Source: Elusimicrobiota bacterium (GTDB taxonomy: Bacteria; Elusimicrobiota; Elusimicrobia; Elusimicrobiales; UBA9959). Taken from it: DNA of 64,000 nucleotides. This document shows positions 3,338-15,547 of the stretch, one piece after another. Location of the stretch: the NCBI GenBank assembly GCA_016208085.1, contig JACQYT010000080.1:56514-120513 (forward strand). Reading direction: 5' to 3'. The position numbers were made by a program, and so were the translations under genes. The notes below the pieces were generated by a model that searched no databases, was not told the DNA's origin, and was given only the letters and a program-made list of their open reading frames with translations. The first letter of the stretch is position 1, and each line of letters begins with the position of its first letter.

Positions 3338-3366
3338 TTTACAAACACAGGGACATTTGCTATACT
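3338..3366 (+). promoter_or_regulatory. Sigma70-like promoter for the type I R-M operon (TTTACA - 17 nt - TGCTATACT extended -10)
   Basis: TTTACA at 3338..3343, a 17-nt spacer and TATACT at 3361..3366 preceded by TGC. It sits in an AT-rich divergent intergenic region 42 nt upstream of the hsdM ATG, with an AAGGGGG RBS in between. Confidence 0.5.
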
Positions 3367-4916: not shown

Positions 4917-6431
4917 ATGGAAGAAAATAAACATCCGATAGAAAAAAATCCTCTGTTCGGGCAGTTGCCGCTTGAACTTTCAGAAAATATCCGGTCTCTC
5001 AACCCCTGGTGGAGCGATGAGGCCGCACCGACAGTGCCTTCCTTCCATCGTTGGATCTTCAAGCGTTTGAATCACATGCTCCATGAAGGGTTGACGCCTG
5101 CGACCGTACTTCGGGGTCCCCGCCGAGTCGGCAAAACGGTCATTCTCAGGCAAATCATCGAGGACTTGCTGGGATCTGCGGTCATTCCTTCACGCATACT
5201 CTATCTTCCCTTTGACGAGTTGCCCACGATGCAGGGCATCCAGGAACCCATTTTGACCGTCGCCCGGTGGTTCGAAAGGGAGGTTATGGGCTGTACTTTC
5301 AACACCTCGGCCCAACAAAATCAGCCGGCCTATCTGCTGTTGGATGAGGTGCAAAATTTGGAGTCCTGGGCTCCCCAGGTCAAGAATCTGGTGGATAACC
5401 ATTCCATGCGCATGCTCATCACTGGAAGCTCCTCGCTGCGCATAGAGGCTGGGCGCGACAGTCTTGCCGGACGAATCTCGACTGTGGATTTGGGCCCGCT
5501 GTCCACTAGGGAAATCGCCGAGATGCGCTTCGGGGCGCGAACAAAACCGATTTGGAACAACGGCCTCAATGGAATAGCGATTCCCGACTTTTGGCGGCAG
5601 GCCGTCGTCATCTGCCGCAAACAAACGGTTCTGCGCCGGAAAGCGTTCGCCGCTTTTTCCGATCGCGGCGCTTACCCGGTTGCTCATGAGAGGAAGGCTG
5701 CCCCGTGGTCCGAGATCGCGGATTATCTCAACGAAACCGTCATCCAGCGGGCTATCCGGCATGATCTACGCATGGGAGCGTGGGGCCAAAAACGGGATGA
5801 AAAGCTCTTGGAGGAAGTTTTCCGCTTGTGCTGCCGCTATGCGGGGCAGGCTCCGGGACAAAGGATCTTCGTCCCGGAAATCCATCAGGCGCTGTCCGTA
5901 AATATCGGCTGGAATAGGATACTTGACTACCTTCAATTTCTTGACAAGACGCTGCTCATCCGACTCATCAGACCGTTGGAGCTCAGATTAAAACGGCAAT
6001 CATCTCCGCCAAAGGTATGCTTGTGCGACCATTCCCTGCGCGCAAGTTGGCTTCAGGAGGTCGTTCCACTTGACCCTGACGGGCTTTCCAAGAATCCACA
6101 CCTTTCGGATTTGGCAGGACACTTGGCGGAAAGCGCGCTCGGCTACTTTCTGGCCTCGATCCCCAACCTGGATGTCGCATATTTTCCCGCGCGCGGCACG
6201 GAACCGGAGGTGGATTTTGTCATAACGGTGGGAACCAAACGGATTCCCATCGAGGTGAAATACCGCAAGTATATTGATCCCCACGACGACACTTTGGGAC
6301 TGCGCGCATTTTTGGAGAAATCCGTCTACAATGCGCCCTTTGGGCTTCTTGTGACCTTGGAGGATGATGTCACCGTGCTGGACCCGCGCATTATCCCCAT
6401 TTCATTGTCGGCTCTGTTATGGTTGAAATAG
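4917..6431 (+). CDS. AAA_14 / DUF4143-type ATPase with PD-(D/E)xK-like C-terminal region, nested in the R-M operon
   Basis: NPWW motif, Walker A GPRRVGKT, Walker B LLLDEVQ, LITGSSS...SLAGR, and C-terminal EVDFVITVG..IPIEVKYRK. There is a 24-nt gap after hsdM and the gene is on the same strand. Confidence 0.8.
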   Translation: MEENKHPIEKNPLFGQLPLELSENIRSLNPWWSDEAAPTVPSFHRWIFKRLNHMLHEGLTPATVLRGPRRVGKTVILRQIIEDLLGSAVIPSRILYLPFDELPTMQGIQEPILTVARWFEREVMGCTFNTSAQQNQPAYLLLDEVQNLESWAPQVKNLVDNHSMRMLITGSSSLRIEAGRDSLAGRISTVDLGPLSTREIAEMRFGARTKPIWNNGLNGIAIPDFWRQAVVICRKQTVLRRKAFAAFSDRGAYPVAHERKAAPWSEIADYLNETVIQRAIRHDLRMGAWGQKRDEKLLEEVFRLCCRYAGQAPGQRIFVPEIHQALSVNIGWNRILDYLQFLDKTLLIRLIRPLELRLKRQSSPPKVCLCDHSLRASWLQEVVPLDPDGLSKNPHLSDLAGHLAESALGYFLASIPNLDVAYFPARGTEPEVDFVITVGTKRIPIEVKYRKYIDPHDDTLGLRAFLEKSVYNAPFGLLVTLEDDVTVLDPRIIPISLSALLWLK

Positions 6432-6432
6432 T

Positions 6433-6457
6433 AAAAATTTTTGCGGCAAAAATTTTT
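6433..6457. repeat. Palindromic repeat AAAAATTTTTGCGGCAAAAATTTTT (copy 1 of 3)
   Basis: Perfect 10-bp arms around GCGGC, directly followed by AATG, the start of the next ORF. Near-identical copies lie at 32411..32435 and 56696..56720. Confidence 0.85.
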
Positions 6458-6458
6458 A

Positions 6459-7496
6459 ATGAAAGAATATAGAGAACAACTGCTGGACTTGATTCTTAAC
6501 TTCCTCTGGCGGCAGTGGTCCGCCCTGGGCGTATTGGGGACGTCCAGCTCGGAAGATGAATGGATCCTGGACCCGGAGCCTTTGCTTCTCTTCTCCCTTG
6601 AGACGGCGCGCTATGAGCCGCGCCTCTTTGACGAAATCCTTTCCTGGCTTTGGACCAACGGCGCCTTGCTTGATATCGCGCGCATCAAGAAGCTTTTATT
6701 GGAAAGAAATTCCGAGGAAACGGCCCGCGTCGTGGGCGGAACGCTTAATTACCTGGTTGATTTCGCGGACAATCGCAAGTGGCAGGGTATTGTGAAATTC
6801 GCGAATGAAAAGTTCCTGGTCAATTCCAAAGACAAGGCCGTCAGGGCGCTCTTCCGGCTTAGAACGGGCGAGCCTCATCCCATGGCGAAAGACGCGGATT
6901 GGCGGTTCATCCCCTTTAATCTTAACCGGCCGAAAATTTTAAGGATAAGAAGGGGCGCGGACGTCCCAGTAAACGCGCAGACGAATATCCGTTTTTTGTT
7001 AAGGCGGTTGTTCGGGGTCGGCGCGCGTTCCGAGGTGATTCTGTATCTGCTGACGCATGAATCCGGCGCTCCTGCCGAGATAGCCGATGCCACCGGCTAT
7101 TTTTGGCTTACCATACGCGACGTTCTGGAAGATTTGCGCGGCTCCAGGCAAATCCTTACAAAGCAGAAAGGCAAACGGATAGAATACTGGCTCTCGCAGA
7201 ATAAATGGTGGGATTTTATTTCCTCTTCCGCGCAGGAAACGCGGCGGCCCAAGTGGCTTAACTGGGCGGAGATTTATACGGCGTTATATATCCTCTGGAA
7301 TACCGTGGACGAAATAGCCGGGGGTTCGGAGTCCGAATATATGAAAAGCTCGCGCCTGCAGGACAGCCTTGAAAAGCTGTCGTCCGAGTTCGCGCAGGCG
7401 GGCATAGCTGTAGGCAATCCCCCGTCTCCGGGCCTTCCCGCTGAGATGCACCAGAGCGCCGCCTTGAAATTTATATCCGGAGCGCTTGGAGCATAA
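6459..7496 (+). CDS. Hypothetical protein (possible winged-helix segment), partner of the DUF4143 ATPase
   Basis: 345-aa ORF with protein-like composition. I recognise no catalytic motif. The segment RSEVILYLLTHESGAPAEIADATGYFWLTIRDVLEDLRGSRQILTKQKGKRIEYWL looks wHTH-like. The start is set at ATG 6459 because the TTG at 6441 lies inside a palindromic repeat. The 3' end overlaps the hsdS start by 11 nt. Confidence 0.6.
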   Translation: MKEYREQLLDLILNFLWRQWSALGVLGTSSSEDEWILDPEPLLLFSLETARYEPRLFDEILSWLWTNGALLDIARIKKLLLERNSEETARVVGGTLNYLVDFADNRKWQGIVKFANEKFLVNSKDKAVRALFRLRTGEPHPMAKDADWRFIPFNLNRPKILRIRRGADVPVNAQTNIRFLLRRLFGVGARSEVILYLLTHESGAPAEIADATGYFWLTIRDVLEDLRGSRQILTKQKGKRIEYWLSQNKWWDFISSSAQETRRPKWLNWAEIYTALYILWNTVDEIAGGSESEYMKSSRLQDSLEKLSSEFAQAGIAVGNPPSPGLPAEMHQSAALKFISGALGA

Positions 7497-8787
7497 AATG
7501 GGCAACCAGATAAACAGCCTGAAGATGGGCCAGAAGTTCAAAAAAACCCCCGCCGGAGAAATTCCGGTGGACTGGGGCGTTTCAACTGTCGGTGATTTGT
7601 GCCAGGTTAATCCGGAAGTTCTTGGGGAATCTACGCCGCCTGATACACGGTTAAAGTATATTGATATTTCATCAATAGAGCGCACAGGGAACATTTCGGC
7701 TGTTAAGGATATTGAATTTAAAGATGCGCCCTCGCGTGCCAAGCGAATTGTTAAAGCCGGGGATATAATAGTTTCCTCAGTCCGCCCATATCTTAGAGCT
7801 TTCGCCCGGATTATAGACCTGTCAAAGAATCTCATTGCCTCAACAGGTTTTACGGTTCTTCGTCCTCGCTCCAATGTGGATGGCGGCTATATATATCAAC
7901 ATATATTAAGCAGTTCTTTTGTGAAATACTTGGAAGGGCGGATGGTGGGGTCAAATTACCCCGCTGTCAATGCGAGCGATGTGGCAGAATACCAGATGCC
8001 AGTGCCAACAATTGTGGAACAGAAAAAAATCGGCCGAATATTGTCTGATATTGATGGATTAATTGACGCTACTCAAATTGAAATTGAAAAGACCAAAGAA
8101 CTTAAAAGAGGCCTGATGCGACAACTTCTCACCCGCGGCATCGGCCATAAAAAATTTAAAAAAACCGCTATAGGCAAAATTCCAGCGGATTGGGAGATAC
8201 GAAATCTTGACGAGCTTTCTACTGACATTTATCGATACCCGACGTATTTCAATATTAAATATGTCGAAAACGGGGTTCCAGAGGTAAGGGGCGAATTAAT
8301 CGGGGCAAATGGGCAGCTTGAAAAAGACACGAGCAGATATAGATACATTTCTTTGGAAACAGCGGCAAAATTCCCCCGTACGAAGCTAGAAGAGGGAGAT
8401 TTTGTCTTGTCGATCCGTGGAACAATGGGGAAAGTTGCCATTGTTACGAAAGAATTGAGTGGGGCCAACATGACGGCCAATCTTATACGCATTTCTCCAA
8501 ATAGAAAGTTGGTAATACCTCATTGGTTACTACATGTGCTTTTGGGTGAATCTTTTCAAAAAAAACTTGCTGCGGCATCTTCAAGCACAACAATAATGAC
8601 AATAACCACGCCAGAGTTGAAAAACATTAAATTCTTTTGCCCACCTTTAAAAGAGCAACAGAAGATGGTTGATGTTTTAGCAGGATTGGACACTCAATTC
8701 AGAACTGCTGTAAGTATTTGCGAGAAAACAGAAGAATTAAAAAAAGGTTTGATGAAAATGCTTTTAACCGGCAAAGTGCGGGTATAA
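7486..8787 (+). CDS. hsdS: Type I R-M specificity subunit HsdS (two target-recognition domains)
   Basis: Two TRDs, each followed by the conserved helical spacer (ELKRGLMRQLLTRGIGH and ELKKGLMKMLLTGKVRV). Visibly AT-richer than hsdM and hsdR. Confidence 0.9.
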   Translation: MEHKMGNQINSLKMGQKFKKTPAGEIPVDWGVSTVGDLCQVNPEVLGESTPPDTRLKYIDISSIERTGNISAVKDIEFKDAPSRAKRIVKAGDIIVSSVRPYLRAFARIIDLSKNLIASTGFTVLRPRSNVDGGYIYQHILSSSFVKYLEGRMVGSNYPAVNASDVAEYQMPVPTIVEQKKIGRILSDIDGLIDATQIEIEKTKELKRGLMRQLLTRGIGHKKFKKTAIGKIPADWEIRNLDELSTDIYRYPTYFNIKYVENGVPEVRGELIGANGQLEKDTSRYRYISLETAAKFPRTKLEEGDFVLSIRGTMGKVAIVTKELSGANMTANLIRISPNRKLVIPHWLLHVLLGESFQKKLAAASSSTTIMTITTPELKNIKFFCPPLKEQQKMVDVLAGLDTQFRTAVSICEKTEELKKGLMKMLLTGKVRV

Positions 8788-8791
8788 TTTT

Positions 8792-8940
8792 ATGGGTAAA
8801 TTCAACGAAGACACGCTTTCTGAAAAGCCGGCGATTGAGCAGTTGAGGCGGATGAAGTACGAGTTTATACCCGGCGACAAGCTGGACCCGCAGGAAACAG
8901 AAGATTGCGAGCGGACTTTGCGCCGTGAGGTTCAAGCATG
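8792..8940 (+). pseudogene. hsdR 5' stub (49 codons), a duplicated N-terminus of the HsdR gene at 10207
   Basis: MGKFNEDTLSEKPAIEQLRRMKYEFIPGDKLDPQETEDCERTLRRE compares with HsdR MTTPKFNEDTLSEKPAIEQLKRMKYEFLTGDKLDPQEAEECERTSRRD. Nucleotide similarity runs over 8798..8928 versus 10219..10349. Confidence 0.8.
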
Positions 8941-9447
8941 AAAGATTTGATTCCGGCGAAAATCGTTGAAAAGAAAATATTTTTAATACGCAGCCAAAAA
9001 GTAATGCTGGACGCCGATTTGGCGCGGATGTACGGGGTGCCGACAAAATCGCTGAATCTTGCTGTTAAACGGAACATACTGCGATTCCCCGGAGATTTTA
9101 TGTTTCAGTTGACCCCGGCAGAGGTCCAAAACTTGAGGTTTCAAATTGAAACCTCAAGTTGGGGCGGCCGGCGGTATGTGCCGTATGCCTTCACTGAGCA
9201 GGGTGTGGCAATGCTTTCAACCGTCCTGAAGAGCGAACGGGCTATTCTGGTCAATATTGCTATTATGCGGATTTTTGTGAGGTTGAGGGAAATGCTTCTC
9301 GCAAATAAGGAGCTTGCGGAAAAACTAAGACAGCTTGAGAATAAAATTGAAAAGCACGATACGGAAATCCAGGCGATATTTGAGGCAATTCACCGGTTGA
9401 TGAACCAGCCGGGGCAGCCCAAAAAGAAAATAGGTTTTATAAAGTGA
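8938..9447 (+). CDS. ORF6N (KilA-N-like) domain DNA-binding protein
   Basis: IFLIRSQKVMLDADLARMYGVPTKSLNLAVKRNILRFPGDFMFQLT...RYVPYAFTEQGVAMLSTVLKSERA is the typical ORF6N signature, followed by a C-terminal coiled coil. Confidence 0.8.
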   Translation: MKDLIPAKIVEKKIFLIRSQKVMLDADLARMYGVPTKSLNLAVKRNILRFPGDFMFQLTPAEVQNLRFQIETSSWGGRRYVPYAFTEQGVAMLSTVLKSERAILVNIAIMRIFVRLREMLLANKELAEKLRQLENKIEKHDTEIQAIFEAIHRLMNQPGQPKKKIGFIK

Positions 9448-9453
9448 GGAACC

Positions 9454-10203
9454 ATGAAAAAAATACTGGCTGAAATAGACAGGCTTCAGAAAGAGATAAA
9501 TAAACACCGGCCCATAAACAAAACCGTCCTTAAGCAGATCAGGGAGTATTACAAGGTGGGTCTTACCTACGCCTCCAATGCCATTGAGGGCAACTCGCTT
9601 ACCGAGAGCGAAACCAAAATAGTCCTGGAAGACGGCCTTACCATAAACGGCAAGCCGCTCAAGGATCATTTTGAAGCCCTTGGCCACGGCGAGGCCTACG
9701 ACCTGATGCATAACCTTTACAAGAATCAGGCTATGGCCGAGGCGGACATTAAAAAGCTGCACAAGCTGTTCTATTACAGGATAGACGCCAAAAACGCCGG
9801 CAAATACCGCAAGGTCAAGGTTTTCATAAGCGGCTCAAAGTACCCCCTGCCGCTGCCGGAAAATGTCCCCGGTCTTATGGCTGATTTTGTGCGCAAGCTT
9901 TTCGCCATGAAGAAACTACTTCACCCCGTTGAGCTCGCCGCGCGGGTGCACAAGGATTTTGTGTTTATCCACCCCTTTGTGGACGGTAACGGCAGGCTGG
10001 CCCGGCTTTTAATGAACCTGGCGCTGTTGCAGGTCGGCTATAACATAACAATAATCCCGCCGGTCCGCCGCGCGGATTACATAGACGCGCTTGAAAAGGC
10101 GCACGAAGACGACAAGCCATTTACCGCCTTTATAGCCGAGATGGCGCTGGAGACCCAGAAGGACTATATACGCCTGTTTGAGGAAAACAAAAAGATCAAA
10201 TAG
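9454..10203 (+). CDS. Fic/DOC family protein (AMPylase-type)
   Basis: Canonical Fic motif HPFVDGNGRLARLL. Confidence 0.9.
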   Translation: MKKILAEIDRLQKEINKHRPINKTVLKQIREYYKVGLTYASNAIEGNSLTESETKIVLEDGLTINGKPLKDHFEALGHGEAYDLMHNLYKNQAMAEADIKKLHKLFYYRIDAKNAGKYRKVKVFISGSKYPLPLPENVPGLMADFVRKLFAMKKLLHPVELAARVHKDFVFIHPFVDGNGRLARLLMNLALLQVGYNITIIPPVRRADYIDALEKAHEDDKPFTAFIAEMALETQKDYIRLFEENKKIK

Positions 10204-10206
10204 CAT

Positions 10207-13200
10207 ATGACCACACCTAAATTCAACGAAGACACGCTTTCTGAAAAGCCGGCTATTGAGCAGCTTAAGCGGATGAAGTATGAATTCTTGACCGGCGACA
10301 AGCTGGATCCGCAGGAAGCCGAGGAATGCGAGCGGACTTCGCGGCGTGATGTGATATTGGCGGATCGCCTGCGGGCCAAGCTTAAAGAATTGAATCCCAA
10401 TGCCGGCGAAATAGCCATTGAAAAAGCCATAAGGCAGGCAACCAATATACAGGGCACAAGCCTTATGGACGAGAACAAATTATTACATAAGGCGCTTGTT
10501 TCAAATATCTCCATAGAGCAGGAAGGTCCCGCCGGGCGCAGAAGCGTAACCATAAAATTTATAGACTTCGACGAGCCCAAAAACAACGACTTCCTTGCGG
10601 TCAACCAGTTCCGGGTCAAAGGCCCCAAGGTCGCGGACAGGCCGGACATAGTAATTTTCGTGAACGGCATCCCTCTGGCCGTTATTGAGTGCAAAAGCCC
10701 GGTTGCCCGTGAAACCGGCGTGGGCGACGCCATAGCACAGCTCCTGCGCTATCAAAAGGAAATTCCCGCGTTATTCAGGACCAACCAGATAGTTTTGGGG
10801 ACGAATCTGTTCGGCGCGAAATACGGCGTTATCGGCGCCGATTATGGCGCTTTCCATGAATGGAAAAACAAGCCGGAAGAAAAACTTCCGGATTTGACCG
10901 ACCATCCCGGCGTCAGGGAAATGCGGGACCTGGGCCTGCTGGAGGACGGGGAATTGCCTCGCGCGCCTGCGCAGCAGGACGTTACCATAGCGGCGCTTTT
11001 TAATAAGCGCAATTTTCTGGACATAATACGCAACTTTACCGTGTTCCAGGCGGACCAGGGCAAGGTCAGCAAAAAAATATGCCGCTACCAGCAGTTCGCG
11101 GCGGTGCAGCGTCTGAGCGCGCGCGTCCTGGCTGAAAAGGAAAAGAAAGGCATTATCTGGCACTGGCAGGGCTCCGGCAAGTCCCTGACCATGGTCTTCG
11201 CCGCCTTGAAACTCCGGCGGGAGGAGAGACGGCTGAAAAACCCGTATTTCCTGGTCGTAACCGACAGAAAAGACCTGGACAGGCAGATAACCAACACCTT
11301 TAACGACTGCGGTTTCCCCAATCCCATCAGGGCCGCGACCGGCCCGGAGCTTTACCGGATGCTGTCGGAGGGCGTGGGCCGCACCATTATGACCACGGTG
11401 CAGAAATTCCGCACGCCGCCGGACAAGCCGCTTTCCCCTGCCGACAATATTATTGTGCTTACCGACGAGGCCCACCGCACGCAGTACGGCAGTTTCGCCT
11501 TCAATCTGCGCAAAGCCCTGCCGAACGCCGCTTTCTTCGCTTTCACCGGCACGCCGCTGGACAAAAAAGATCGCAGCACCTATAAAGAATTCAGCCCCGC
11601 CGGCGAAAGCTACATGCACCGCTACGGCATAATGGAATCCGAGGCCGACAAAGCCACCGTGCCGATAAAATACATGGGCCGCCTGCCTTCGCTGCGCCTG
11701 GTCGGCGGGTCAATAGACGCGCTGCTGGCCTGCCTGTTCCCGGACAAGAGCAAAAGCGAACTGGCCGGGATCAAGAAGCAATACGCCGGCATGGAGGTCC
11801 TGCACGGCGCGCCTCAGAGAATAGAGCGCGTGGCCATGGATATAGTGGAGCATTACCATCAGGCCATACGCCCCAACGGCCTCAAAGCCATGATAGTGGC
11901 CAAAGACAGGGACGCCGCCGAGCTTTACAAAAACTGCCTGGACAAGCTTGTCCCGCCGGAGGCTTCGGCCGTTATCATGACGATAAACGAGCGCGGGGAT
12001 TGTGAAGAGCGCAAAAAGCGCTTCTCGCTTACCGACAAGGAAGAGGAAAACCTGAAAGAGCGCTTTAAGAATCCCGGCGACCCGCTTTCCTTCTTGATCG
12101 TCTGCGACAAACTGCTGACCGGCTTTGACGCGCCGCTTCTGCAGGCCATGTACCTGGACCAGCGGCTTATCGAGCACGGTTTGCTGCAGGCGGTCGCCCG
12201 CACCAACCGCTGCTATCCGGGCAAGAATTACGGGCTTGTGGTGGATTATGTCGGAATCGGAAGCGAATTGGCCGCTTCGCTCAAAAAATTCAATTCCGAG
12301 GATGTGGCCGGCATGTTCAGCGCCGAGGACGTGGAAAAAGAATTGAAGCAGTTGCCGCTTCTTCATAAGGCCGCGATGGTATTTTTCGCCGGCGTTTCTT
12401 TTGATGCCCAGCCCAGGACTATAATCCAGAAATGCCTTGAGGTTCTAAGGCCGCCCGCCGTAAGAGGCGGGTTTGATGAGGCCTACCGCGCCCTGGCAAA
12501 AAGCATGGATTTTCTGATGCCCGACCTGCGGATTGAGCCTTTCCTCAAGGATTTTAAGTTCCTGGGAGCCGTCCGCGAGGGCGCCAAAAACCTGTACCGC
12601 GATGAGCGTCTTAAGTCCGAGGATTTGAGCGCCAAGGTAAAGGCCCTGATACAAGCGCATATCGCCGCCGAAAAAATAGAAGAGCTTTTAAAGCCCCTGA
12701 CGATTACCGCGCCTGACTTTGCCGGGCAGCTTGCGGCCAAGGGTTCGGATAAAGCCAAGGCGGTGCACCTGGAATACGCTTTGCGCGACACGCTGCGCAG
12801 CGCGTCTGCGGAAAACCCGGCATTTTATGAAACCCTCCAAAAACGGCTGGAAGACGCGATTGCCGCGAATAAAAAAGAACGCCGCGACGACGCGGACCTG
12901 CTGTTGTCGCTTATGCGGATAAAGGAAATAGAGGCGCATAAAGACGAGACGGCGAAAAAACTAGGCCTGGCCGGCGGCAGGGAGTTCGCCTTCTTCGGCC
13001 TTATTGACCGGTCCGAAGACCTGCCGGGCTTGAAAAAGGAAGAGCGGGCCGTTCTCGCCAAAGAAATTATCGGCCTGATAGAAGAGCGGGCCGTAGCCGA
13101 GTGGGCCGAGCGGGAAGATATTCAAAAGGAAATGCGTCGTGAAATAAAACGCCTGCTCAGGCGCAAAGGCTGCGCCGAGGAAAAGCTCCCGGCCCTGACC

Positions 13201-13243: not shown

Positions 13244-13996
13244 ATGACAGCTACGCTTACGGAGCCGATTGCCTATACCCTGCTTCCCTCTAAAGGGCGC
13301 AAAAGCGTTTTTTTGCGGGTAAACAGGGACGGTACGGTAACGGTGCGCGCCCCCAGGTTTGTGTCAAAGGCTTATATTGAACAGTTTGTGGCCAAACGCT
13401 CCGGCTGGATTACGGAGAAACAGAATTATTTTAACCAGCTTCTGACGCTCTATCCTCCAAAAGAATTTAAGAACGGCGAATCCTTCCAGTTTTTGGGCCG
13501 CAACTTAAGGCTTAGGCTGCGGCATATAGCGGGTTTGAAAATCCCGACGTGCAGGATTGAGGCGGGGCGGATTAAATTATTGCTGAACGGCCGGGCAGGT
13601 GCGGAACTTAAAGCCGCCGCTTCCGGAGCTGTACGCAATTTATATGCCAGGCATACCGCTTTGAGAACCGCCGCTTTTGTCCGCAGGCATTCCGCCGCTT
13701 TGGCTATAAAACCTGGGCGGATTTCAGTAGTGGGCCAGAAGAAACGTTGGGGAAGCTGTTCGCGTAAAGGCGACATCCGAATTAACTGGCGGCTGGCCAT
13801 GATGCCCCCGGCGGTTGTTGAGTATATCATCGTTCACGAGCTGTGCCATTTAAAAGTTCACGACCATTCGCTGAAATTCTGGAGCATCGTTAAATCCGTC
13901 CTCCCCGACTACGAAACCCGCCGCGCCTGGCTGCGCCGGCACGGCCCCGCTGTTTTTCTGATGGCTGATTGGCCGTCTGATGGCCATAGGCCTTGA
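13244..13996 (+). CDS. YgjP-like M48/DUF45 zinc metallohydrolase (commonly linked to type I R-M)
   Basis: HExxH motif in IIVHELCHLKVHDHS. The start is 1 nt after the hsdR stop. Confidence 0.8.
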   Translation: MTATLTEPIAYTLLPSKGRKSVFLRVNRDGTVTVRAPRFVSKAYIEQFVAKRSGWITEKQNYFNQLLTLYPPKEFKNGESFQFLGRNLRLRLRHIAGLKIPTCRIEAGRIKLLLNGRAGAELKAAASGAVRNLYARHTALRTAAFVRRHSAALAIKPGRISVVGQKKRWGSCSRKGDIRINWRLAMMPPAVVEYIIVHELCHLKVHDHSLKFWSIVKSVLPDYETRRAWLRRHGPAVFLMADWPSDGHRP

Positions 13997-14029
13997 TGCG
14001 GCACCCACACAGATATTGGGGGTAATATA

Positions 14030-15195: not shown

Positions 15196-15196
15196 A

Positions 15197-15270
15197 CGGC
15201 CTGTACGGGATTTGAACCCGTGATCTCTGCCTTGAGAGGGCAGCGTCCTAGGCCGCTAGACGAACAGGCC
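15197..15270 (-). tRNA. tRNA-Glu (anticodon CUC)
   Basis: The reverse complement GGCCTGTTCGTCTAGCGGCCTAGGACGCTGCCCTCTCAAGGCAGAGATCACGGGTTCAAATCCCGTACAGGCCG folds as a cloverleaf. It has a 7-bp acceptor stem, anticodon loop CTCTCAA and T-loop GGTTCAAATCC. Confidence 0.9.
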
Positions 15271-15429
15271 GTAAAAAAACGATTTTTATTATTCTATCAA
15301 AATGGCGGCTTCTTCCTCAATTTAAACTGAAAAAATGTGGGCGAATTTTTTCATGCTCTTCCAGCCGGCGACACCAAAAACACACCGGCGTTTGCCGGCA
15401 CAATCGACCAGCCGGATGTTTTTCAAAAA

Positions 15430-15468
15430 CGAACGACGACCTGAAAATTGCACTGCGCAATTTTCAGG
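15430..15468. repeat. Conserved hairpin element CGAACGA-GACCYGAAAATTGC-loop-GCAATTTTCRGG (copy 1 of 3); acts as an inter-tRNA hairpin
   Basis: 12-bp stem 15440..15451 / 15457..15468. Related copies lie at 27096..27178 and 47715..47752, each with the same CGAACGA head. Confidence 0.75.
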
Positions 15469-15475
15469 TAAAAAC

Positions 15476-15547
15476 AGCCGACGGCCGGGATTGAACCGGC
15501 GACCTACCGCTTACAAGGCGGTTGCTCTACCGCTGAGCTACGTCGGC
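15476..15547 (-). tRNA. tRNA-Thr (anticodon UGU)
   Basis: The reverse complement GCCGACGTAGCTCAGCGGTAGAGCAACCGCCTTGTAAGCGGTAGGTCGCCGGTTCAATCCCGGCCGTCGGCT is a 72-nt cloverleaf with anticodon loop CTTGTAA. Confidence 0.9.

Follow-up and report, generated by a model that had tools for sequence, protein, structure and literature searches.

A diverged, open copy of the hsdR 5' end precedes embedded ORF6N and Fic genes in an Elusimicrobiota type I restriction-modification operon and recurs in related loci

Here we analyzed 64,000 nucleotides (nt) of an uncultured Elusimicrobiota bacterium (NCBI GenBank assembly GCA_016208085.1, contig JACQYT010000080.1, positions 56,514 to 120,513 of the forward strand), a stretch that we call the window at its whole length, and within it a type I restriction-modification (R-M) operon in which genes for an ORF6N-domain protein and a Fic protein stand between hsdS and hsdR. 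These two genes are bracketed by two diverged copies of the 5' end of hsdR: the downstream copy is the beginning of the intact gene, and the upstream one belongs to a short open reading frame (ORF), hereafter the stub, that occupies the native hsdR position behind hsdS and runs into the start of the ORF6N gene. Stubs of this kind recur in related loci, where they stand open in front of different genes and end at nearly the same hsdR codon. The explanation that we favor, at about even chances, is homologous recombination that uses the conserved hsdR start as its anchor; in this view the stub would be the displaced end of the resident gene, would mark a reusable slot and would act as a leader for translational coupling. 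Comparison loci fetched for the analysis were numbered and are cited as L042, L055, L081 and so on.

The repeat forms a single family of two copies that extends over 135 nt with 87% identity, without gaps and with a spacing of 1421 nt (Table 1), and the MAFFT alignment agreed with the repeat search. Its leading 35 nt are identical in both copies (8798-8832 and 10219-10253), and this 35-mer has only these two sites in the 64 kb, none being expected from 100 shuffles. Both copies correspond to the hsdR 5' end, copy 1 running from codon 3 of the stub ORF and copy 2 from codon 5 of hsdR, the ATG of which lies 3 nt beyond the Fic stop. Past the end of the homology the stub reads GTT CAA GCA TGA, this TGA overlapping the ATG of ORF6N, and hsdR carries GATG where the stub has the Shine-Dalgarno-like GAGG. 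Of the HSDR_N nuclease domain the stub comprises only the initial helix and strand, and Pfam has no separate family for it; the region 8600-10400 of the window yielded no Rfam match. Both the stub and the ORF6N proteins are annotated on the 122,923-nt contig of the NCBI Elusimicrobia metagenome-assembled genome (MAG), the stub as HY796_08810.

An earlier note on this DNA, which we refer to as the original prediction, had placed here diverged direct repeats of roughly 85-90% identity, both coding for the HsdR N-terminus, and had proposed a pairwise alignment as the check. That alignment, with its 19 differences and no gaps, excludes the outcome of no similarity, copy 1 lying in the stub and copy 2 in an intact hsdR of 1011 amino acids (aa), and the gene coordinates given at the time all hold (the 49-codon stub with its ATGA overlap, ORF6N, Fic, and hsdR 3 nt past Fic). 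The original prediction had also named the possibility that the stub is the genuine N-terminal exon of a split hsdR, and this is ruled out by the downstream hsdR having a complete N-terminus of its own. An assembly artefact is ruled out likewise, the same architecture being present in independent assemblies from other samples (L089, L090 and L183), and so is a target-site duplication of the transposase type, which leaves short identical repeats of 2-14 bp and not 135 nt at 87% identity with coding-type divergence. Neither a transposase nor terminal inverted repeats were found at the cassette by the repeat search and Pfam.

The 19 differences between the copies divide into 10.5 synonymous and 8.5 non-synonymous ones, giving a ratio of non-synonymous to synonymous divergence (dN/dS) of 0.16, whereas neutral decay would be expected to yield about 4.5 synonymous to 14.5 non-synonymous changes (binomial p = 0.002). 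The repeat of L089 (138 nt, 91% identity) likewise deviates from neutrality (dN/dS 0.12; p = 0.0008), and values of 0.08-0.16 were obtained for the window stub against hsdR 5' ends and of 0.14-0.16 for stub against stub. Because the differences are mostly synonymous, most of the divergence is best read as having arisen while each copy still belonged to a functioning hsdR gene, and the pair is therefore neither a recent duplication nor a pseudogene fragment in decay.

The nearest relative of the segment comprising Fic, hsdR and the YgjP gene was found in L085/L086, from another Elusimicrobia MAG, and the synonymous divergence (dS) between this locus and the window is distributed unevenly along the segment (Table 2). 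Fic and the first 50 codons of hsdR share low values, which differ significantly from those of the rest of hsdR (Fisher tests, p = 3e-4 for codons 1-50 and p = 1e-13 for Fic), and nucleotide identity falls from about 92% to 84% just past the repeat and then to about 75%. The low-dS block spans the whole repeat, and the block of 35 identical nt lies at the 5' end of the repeats. Against the hsdR group of L085, L089, L176 and L182 the stub showed dS values of 0.76-1.04, the live 5' end 0.35-0.67 and the hsdR body 1.2-1.5, the stub thus being nearer to the body than the live 5' end is, which, with about 29 synonymous sites in each comparison, amounts to a trend short of proof. This pattern fits an incoming cassette that brought hsdR codons 1 to about 50 with it and displaced the resident 5' end, left as the stub.

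Table 2. Synonymous divergence between the window and L085
Segment	dS
Fic	0.37
hsdR codons 1-50	0.35
hsdR codons 51-100	0.82
hsdR codons 101-200	1.13
hsdR codons 51-1011	1.28
YgjP	0.81

Searches for further stubs, along the lines of the survey of type I loci that the original prediction had proposed, found stubs of this hsdR in L089, L090 and L183 and decayed ones in L088 and L171. In L089 the gene order is hsdS, a 365-aa gene, a 49-codon stub, a RhuM::Doc fusion gene (PDC-S23) and hsdR, and the insert amounts to one ORF that starts 5 nt past the stub homology and ends 2 nt before the hsdR ATG. L090 has a HigBA-like pair followed by a 51-codon stub and then RhuM, and L183 has a 229-aa gene, a 56-codon stub overlapping both neighbors by 4 nt, and a Bro-N-domain gene. 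With the window included, the stub is open in four loci (49, 49, 51 and 56 codons) and in each overlaps the start of the next gene. The end GTGAGGTTnAAnnATGA is common to the stubs of the window, L089 and L090, L183 having the analogous AGGAGG...GTGA; the hsdR homology of all of them ends within codons ~44-48, and the sequence directly past the stub is not conserved between loci. Stub and own hsdR 5' end differ at 19 nt in the window and at 12 nt in L089, as compared with 24 differences between stubs of different loci, and this closer likeness within a locus fits repeated displacement of resident ends or gene conversion. In L088 and L171, where the gene downstream of the stub has been lost, indels and AT-rich drift have eroded the stub. 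That the stub recurs and stays open in relatives had gone unnoticed in the original prediction. Short hsdR N-terminal ORFs in L172-L175 were considered as further cassette stubs and excluded, hsdR being cut there by insertion sequences (IS; rve and DDE_Tnp_1 fragments) and at other break points; loss of hsdR caused by IS is also common in the clade, as these same loci attest.

The decayed stub of L171, within the region 6084-8635, lies in a phage-like contig without R-M genes, beside a tyrosine integrase. Stub and spacer are 330 nt upstream of the integrase, and the spacer is that of L088 (81% over 88 nt). The other neighbor of this stub is an 89-aa gene without a Pfam match that appears S24/LexA-like by eye, and the contig also holds Gp3-like, M15 peptidase and N6_N4 methylase genes.

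The exhaustive phmmer search with the stub returned only 22 cluster representatives, many of them short, and because of this the HsdR N-terminal type of the locus appears to be rare; a word-indexed search gave two more stub ORFs. The exact pattern CCGCAGGAA-N28-GTGAGGTTNAANNATGA, which represents the stub-cassette junction, had 0 matches in JGI metagenome contigs, and the hsdR 5' pattern had 0 in IMG/VR viral contigs. By tblastn the HsdR N-terminus had no match in 50,697 phage genomes, and in plasmids it matched only distant full-length hsdR genes at <44% identity, with no stubs among them; no relatives of the L171 integrase were found in viral contigs. Several short contigs of a related MAG begin or end inside the repeat of stub and hsdR 5' end, L088 begins and ends with the same 19-mer (1-19 and 982-1000), and positions 1-15 of L085 also fall within the repeat. 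Because contigs of the related MAG break at it in this way, the repeat probably interrupts short-read assemblies, leaving stubs under-sampled in metagenomes.

Fic has a distribution of its own. In L081-L084 it lies between hsdM and hsdS with 86.5% nucleotide and 89% protein identity to the window gene (dS 0.56), in a locus type whose hsdM and hsdR show saturated dS in comparison with the window and in which DUF4917 and patatin genes precede hsdR; L181 resembles L081 in having Fic between hsdM and hsdS. The homology with L081 covers 9432-10196 of the window, from about 22 nt upstream of the Fic ATG to the stop and with ORF6N outside, and the block shared with L182 likewise starts about 22 nt upstream of the ATG and excludes ORF6N. 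In L182 Fic stands between a RhuM::Doc fusion gene and an L089-type hsdR and has no stub of its own, and in L085, L088 and L176 a leader resembling abiF, with promoter-like sequence and a hairpin, precedes Fic instead of ORF6N. Across the loci Fic is paired with different hsdR alleles and is thus mosaic with respect to its neighbors, so we regard it as a separately mobile module.

The Fic protein presents the catalytic motif HPFVDGNGRLAR, which fits the consensus HxFx(D/E)GNGRxxR. Its closest solved structures are those of FICD/HYPE (7e-35), and because its SNAIEGN aligns with the inhibitory TVAIEGN of FICD we assign it to the self-inhibited class II, to which human FICD/HYPE and BtFic (3CUC) belong; unlike FICD, the 249-aa protein lacks the TPR and membrane parts. 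The SoFic profile of PADLOC matches it at 8e-24 over profile positions 61-275 of 361, the window protein lacking about 110 extra residues of that model, and PDC-S04 profiles fit better and at full length, making PDC-S04 the best family, as a candidate only.

The leader upstream of Fic (L088 135-224 and L176 1-85; also L171 7113-7200) consists of conserved promoter-like sequence, a hairpin and a U-run. In L088 and L176 it matches the Rfam abiF RNA (RF03085) at full length but below threshold, at 23-24 bits against a gathering score of 37, and the L171 leader has no Rfam match. The short ORF that follows the leader in L171, beside the integrase, begins with what we take to be an AbiD/F-like N-terminus (MKYNKPPLTFEAQADLL). 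In L176 a GC-rich insert of 45 nt separates Fic from hsdR (836-900) and the hsdR ATG reads ATA; a 37-nt stretch that takes in the Fic stop and the beginning of this insert shares 86% identity with window positions 13968-14004, in the region of the YgjP gene end, which suggests a small dispersed repeat.

Bracketing repeats are also present outside this hsdR clade. When all fetched loci were compared with themselves by BLAST, direct repeats bracketed the Fic or ORF6N gene in 11 of the 131 loci, as compared with 10 of the 711 control ORFs (p = 8e-5), and in 9 of 129 (p = 9e-4) with a contig-wrap artefact and a repeat-rich locus left out. Three of the cases clearly duplicate the 5' end of the gene downstream. 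In L042, a Francisella MAG with a different hsdR family, duplication of 43 nt from the ATG has produced a stub of 30 codons, its stop overlapping the first bases of a Schlafen/AlbA_2 gene. In L120 an ORF6N gene inserted before cas8b (Cas_TM1802) is preceded and overlapped by a 51-codon stub derived from the cas8b 5' end, and in the type I locus L055 a frameshifted duplicate of the initial ~55 nt of a PDDEXK_3 gene lies ahead of a 97-aa gene and Fic. The class is mixed, because some of its cases are non-coding duplications or resemble repetitive extragenic palindromes or miniature inverted-repeat transposable elements (REP/MITE): the bracketing repeats of L121/L170, L131 and L117 are non-coding target duplications, and that of L078 was rejected as a target duplication, being a palindromic, non-coding REP/MITE-like element. 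The operon of L120 in which stub, ORF6N gene and cas8b stand (796-951 and 1493-2641) is a type I-B CRISPR-Cas operon. In L121 (231-350 and 943-1067) and L170 (105-232 and 823-947) direct repeats of about 125 nt (87% and 73% identity), made of the 3' end of the upstream gene and intergenic sequence, flank a single ORF6N gene inserted outside any defense locus; its neighbors, judged by eye on their translations, are a probable proC 3' end and an acyltransferase-like gene.

Placing these results into the explanation that we favor, a promoterless cassette carrying its own first ~48 hsdR codons downstream would have come in when the locus underwent homologous recombination with another type I locus, related but distinct. 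The stub would be the original 5' end of the resident hsdR, displaced and left after hsdS, the incoming 5' end would have become the head of the live hsdR, and the two 135-nt copies would bound a slot between hsdS and hsdR in which single-gene defense candidates of the ORF6N, RhuM and Bro-N types, and separately Fic, would be swapped among loci of the hsdR clade. In Campbell-type integration a circle with a segment homologous to the target leaves direct repeats around the insert that differ by the divergence between donor and recipient, and about 35 nt, which is the longest identical run between the copies here, is about the minimal length for exchange of the RecA type. The vehicle is likely a repeat-flanked DNA segment that loops out or circularizes through its terminal repeats, and the circle would re-enter another hsdR 5' end by a single crossover of the Campbell type, regenerating a stub each time; re-entry would carry the junction along, and therefore the junction would be shared while most of each stub resembles its own locus. 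Homology-facilitated illegitimate recombination could plausibly have formed the first such junction. Scanning the + strand from 8700 to 10300 found no promoter-like site and no convincing terminator-like site, and in this operon without an internal promoter the open frame of the stub may be kept as a translational coupling leader, in which ribosomes would start at the native hsdR site after hsdS, read 49 codons, stop at the ATGA preceded by GAGG and pass to ORF6N. ORF6N and Fic are most likely independent accessory defense modules co-expressed with the R-M system, the former as a DNA-binding PDC-S05 protein and the latter through regulated AMPylation.

Several observations weigh against this explanation. 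Neither an empty site nor a circular junction or a donor locus was seen, and for this reason the recombination pathway and the direction of transfer are those that we infer. The stub end-point shared in front of ORF6N, RhuM and Bro-N genes requires either one ancient junction that survived many swaps or a site preference, and a site-specific mechanism explains it more directly; to this are to be added the stub and spacer of L171 beside a tyrosine integrase in a phage-like contig, and the frequent position of ORF6N genes next to integrases on plasmids and integrative and conjugative elements (ICEs). Among 80 ORF6N metagenome loci surveyed, none had another stub belonging to this hsdR family, on account of which the stub would go with the hsdR clade and not with ORF6N generally. 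The low dN/dS of the stub also fits a functional stub peptide. The dS contrast of the block of 45-50 codons is based on about 30 synonymous sites, the rise from 0.35 to 1.3 along hsdR is gradual and without a sharp breakpoint, and the REP/MITE-like repeats (L078) among the bracketing cases make the enrichment figure heterogeneous.

Several of these points would be met by a second explanation, unlikely in our judgment, in which the repeats are attL/attR remnants of a tyrosine-integrase element that targeted hsdR codon ~45-48 and carried a replacement 5' end, with ORF6N, RhuM or Bro-N and Fic as border cargo left by an interior deletion, after the manner of a cis-mobilizable element (CIME). Islands that target tRNA genes, and e14 and phage 21 in icd, bring a replacement end of the target gene, and the likeness is close: the insert lies between imperfect direct repeats that stem from the target gene, which itself remains intact through the substitute end. 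It is the 3' end that those elements replace, and they bring an integrase gene of their own, unlike the one or two coupled ORFs seen here, which have no integrase and come with a 5' end. An element-borne replacement end would be expected to give the low-dS block of Fic and hsdR codons 1-50; it would also account for a stub end-point that is nearly constant in front of different genes, for the arrangement in L171, and for the 50-180 nt direct repeats that flank ORF6N outside defense loci (L121, L170 and L131). ORF6N was found on complete plasmids in 18 records; six of the six inspected are not embedded in R-M loci and three lie beside integrases or a Tn3 transposase, and ORF6N adjoins a site-specific integrase on a Legionella conjugative plasmid and a Bacteroides element. 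The window, L089, L182 and L183 have no integrase at the cassette or close to it, however, and the L089 element would be exactly one ORF with no space for arm sites. The absence of conserved sequence directly past the stub speaks against an attachment site as well, and insertions that are all co-oriented, promoterless and translationally coupled are unlike the scar of a deleted prophage; nor did the searches of viral contigs and phage genomes described above find the stub or relatives of the L171 integrase. As observations on ORF6N in their own right, made on complete plasmids or ICE-like records, L184 2671-4894 (the Legionella oakridgensis plasmid) and L186 2118-4561 (Bacteroides ovatus) show it next to a site-specific integrase and L187 939-4567 (Sulfuricurvum) next to a Tn3 transposase, and we read these positions as element borders.

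A wider claim, that cassettes with a duplicated 5' end constitute a general class of integrase-free mobile elements using a spare host-gene start (of hsdR, cas8b and others) as their homology attachment site, and that loop-out and re-insertion by host recombination, with the host gene left whole and the cassette coupled in translation through the stub, embed genes in R-M, CRISPR-Cas and similar operons, seems to us doubtful.

A third explanation, which we think quite improbable, supposes that the repeat arose in situ by slippage, template switching or a long staggered break in a single insertion, that the stub is a functional micro-protein or regulatory leader, and that its likeness to hsdR is kept by selection and gene conversion and not by import from another locus. 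The intact frames in four loci with stop-start overlap onto the next gene, the dN/dS between stubs, and the decay of the stub upon loss of the downstream gene are what such a stub would show, and stub and hsdR co-vary locus by locus as gene conversion predicts. It leaves unexplained that dS in Fic and hsdR codons 1-50 is 3.5-fold lower than in the rest of hsdR, and that Fic accompanies different hsdR alleles and stands at other junctions; moreover, a fragment comprising so little of HSDR_N makes a poor candidate for a protein of its own, and coupling requires an open frame and not a conserved sequence.

The original prediction had suggested that Fic with its ORF6N partner may act as a toxin-antitoxin-like or abortive-infection adjunct to the R-M system. 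That the two genes are a toxin-antitoxin or abortive-infection module moving as a unit is very improbable: the genes are adjacent, co-oriented and 6 nt apart, both families are seen embedded in defense loci, and the fusion of RhuM with a Doc-type Fido domain in L089 points to a recurrent functional link of these domain classes, but ORF6N precedes Fic in none of its five closest relatives (96, 92, 91, 89 and 87% aa identity) and accompanies Fic in one of 80 genome loci, the closest ORF6N relative (73%) adjoins ABC transporter genes with neither Fic nor R-M genes beside it, the Fic homology blocks with L081 and L182 leave ORF6N out, and the inhibitory motif (S/T)xxxE(G/N) is missing from the ORF6N translation and present in Fic itself. 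PADLOC moreover lists PDC-S01 (AAA_14), PDC-S05 (ORF6N) and PDC-S04 (Fic) as separate single-gene candidates, and the sequence evidence thus does not support the toxin-antitoxin reading and is consistent with independent modules. The pairing is a tempting misreading that we correct here; the other parts of the original prediction, that the diverged repeats are no fresh target-site duplication and that the cassette region was exchanged with different type I loci, are supported by the coding-type divergence, the low-dS block shared with L085 and the presence of Fic in unrelated loci at other junctions.

ORF6N itself matches the PDC-S05 profile PDLC04856 at 9.7e-61 (residues 2-167 on profile positions 2-175 of 177) and has no similarity to the RhuM of L089 by BLASTP (E 0.78). 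Its gene contains a perfect palindrome (Table 1) whose 14-bp stem and 3-nt loop are conserved in 34 aligned ORF6N homologues among L091-L170. Pairing is kept in 92% of cells as compared with 78.6% in shuffles, 9 of the 14 pairs have changed on both sides, and the covariation score is 0.37 against 0.145 in shuffles (reached by 0 of 500) and 0.05-0.11 in slid controls. The residues encoded there change (FQIE, CHFG, SQIV) while the pairing is kept, and L102, L140, L154 and L142 have insertions at the hairpin. No Rfam match was found for the palindrome, and because G-U pairs are rare it may act at the DNA level. As part of the wider claim stated above, the ORF6N, RhuM and Bro-N genes and this palindrome might be active in cassette mobility.

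The operon that hosts the cassette is a single co-oriented and closely packed unit on the + strand, from hsdM to the YgjP gene (Table 1). Between hsdS and YgjP adjacent genes overlap or are separated by 0-6 nt, and the upstream gaps are 24 nt (between hsdM and the ATPase gene) and 9 nt; the promoter-like site upstream of hsdM is likely the operon promoter. By Pfam the type I R-M gene set appears complete, with the HsdM domains, an HsdS of two target-recognition domains and a full-length HsdR without frame break, and no second type I locus was found elsewhere in the 64-kb window, the remainder being ordinary chromosomal content. A third embedded defense candidate, which the original prediction had not noticed, is the AAA_14/DUF4143 gene between hsdM and the 351-aa gene; in L172 its position is held by a different gene, of 193 aa, and a stub footprint beside it was ruled out, the gaps of 24 and 9 nt being too small. 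The 351-aa protein matches nothing in Pfam or PADLOC and has a 350-aa counterpart at the same position in L172-L174 (L172 4247-5299), and it is probably a conserved accessory gene or subunit of this type I lineage. The YgjP gene keeps its position in L081 and L085. Genes for tRNA-Glu and tRNA-Thr lie downstream of the locus (15196-15547); in L085 (5124-6423) genes for a phage-type integrase and an HTH_17 protein come after the same tRNA-Glu (96% identity over 82 nt), and because of these we consider the tRNA-Glu beside the R-M locus to be a probable island integration site in this lineage.

Table 1. Features of the R-M locus in the window
Feature	Position	Strand	Evidence or remark
Sigma-70-like promoter, best at the locus	3338..3366	+	TTTACA-17-TATACT with TG, upstream of hsdM
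hsdM, 494 aa	3408..4892	+	Pfam N6_Mtase 1.6e-109, HsdM_N 7.5e-29
AAA_14/DUF4143 ATPase, embedded	4917..6431	+	Pfam; PADLOC candidate PDC-S01 at 2e-33
351-aa protein overlapping hsdS start	6441..7496	+	41% identity (E 6e-92) with the 350-aa gene of L172
hsdS, two target-recognition domains	7486..8787	+	Pfam Methylase_S, 2 stretches
hsdR 5' stub ORF, 49 codons	8792..8941	+	MGKFNEDTLSEKPAIEQLRRMKYEFIPGDKLDPQETEDCERTLRREVQA and stop; native hsdR position, 4 nt past hsdS
Direct repeat copy 1	8797..8931	+	Repeat search, MAFFT alignment, 35-mer shuffle test
Junction: GAGG (8927-8930), 7-nt spacer, ATGA (8938-8941)	8927..8941	+	Direct reading of the sequence
ORF6N-domain protein, 169 aa	8938..9447	+	Pfam ORF6N 1.4e-33; PADLOC PDC-S05 1e-60, full length
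Perfect palindrome, 15-nt arms, within ORF6N codons 65-75	9130..9160	.	Repeat search; covariation across homologues
Fic, 249 aa, class II (FICD-like), predicted	9454..10203	+	Pfam Fic 1.5e-20; PADLOC PDC-S04
Intact hsdR, 1011 aa	10207..13242	+	Pfam HSDR_N 5-207, SWI2_SNF2 295-517, T1R_D3-like, T1RH-like_C
Direct repeat copy 2, live hsdR 5' end	10218..10352	+	Repeat search; low dS shared with Fic against L085
YgjP-like metallopeptidase, last operon gene	13244..13996	+	Pfam YgjP-like 5.8e-55
tRNA-Glu flanking the locus	15196..15271	-	Context

The components of this locus are known ones, and the novelty lies in the footprint, in its recurrence and in the slot mechanism that it implies; the footprint appears to be undescribed in the literature searched. 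Campbell-type integration, homology-facilitated illegitimate recombination and the translocatable units of IS26 likewise duplicate a homologous segment around an insert; unlike Campbell-type integration and the IS26 units, the repeat here is the start of a host defense gene and not an IS or vector fragment, and no circle, donor or recombinase dependence was observed. Defense genes nested in type I R-M operons are established, as PrrC in EcoprrI and TgvAB in VPI-2 of Vibrio cholerae, the latter demonstrating that embedded genes can form an independent defense system. The survey of Payne et al. (bioRxiv 10.1101/2024.01.29.577857), which yielded the PDC families, found 96.7% co-orientation of embedded genes, stated that the significance of embedding 'remains to be explored' and offered only the idea of a 'genomic sink'; in a search of its text neither recombination nor truncation or duplication of the ends of flanking genes turned up. 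The window resembles such systems in its co-oriented accessory genes between hsd genes, three of which match PDC-S01, PDC-S05 and PDC-S04, and differs in that published accounts give gene identity and function and do not describe a duplicated, diverged 5' end and a reusable slot. In E. coli a RhuM-domain member of PDC-S05 lowered the plating of T7 and T5 by a factor of about 1000 (bioRxiv 10.1101/2024.09.26.614923), and the ORF6N protein of the window matches that family over the full length of the profile; the member tested against phages is of the RhuM type, whereas the window protein is of the ORF6N type.

Nesting of anti-phage genes within other immune operons has already been used to discover defense systems, with the route by which the nested genes enter left open beyond the 'genomic sink'. 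The present locus and its relatives offer a checkable footprint of entry, made up of a leftover and still open start of the host gene, about 45 codons long, upstream of the insert and a substitute copy that arrives with it. If this footprint were general, it would provide a sequence signature for locating embedded cassettes and their boundaries, and it would explain how promoterless inserts and the restriction gene downstream of them are expressed. In such a scenario the conserved starts of immune genes may serve as landing pads for the swapping of accessory defenses between strains.

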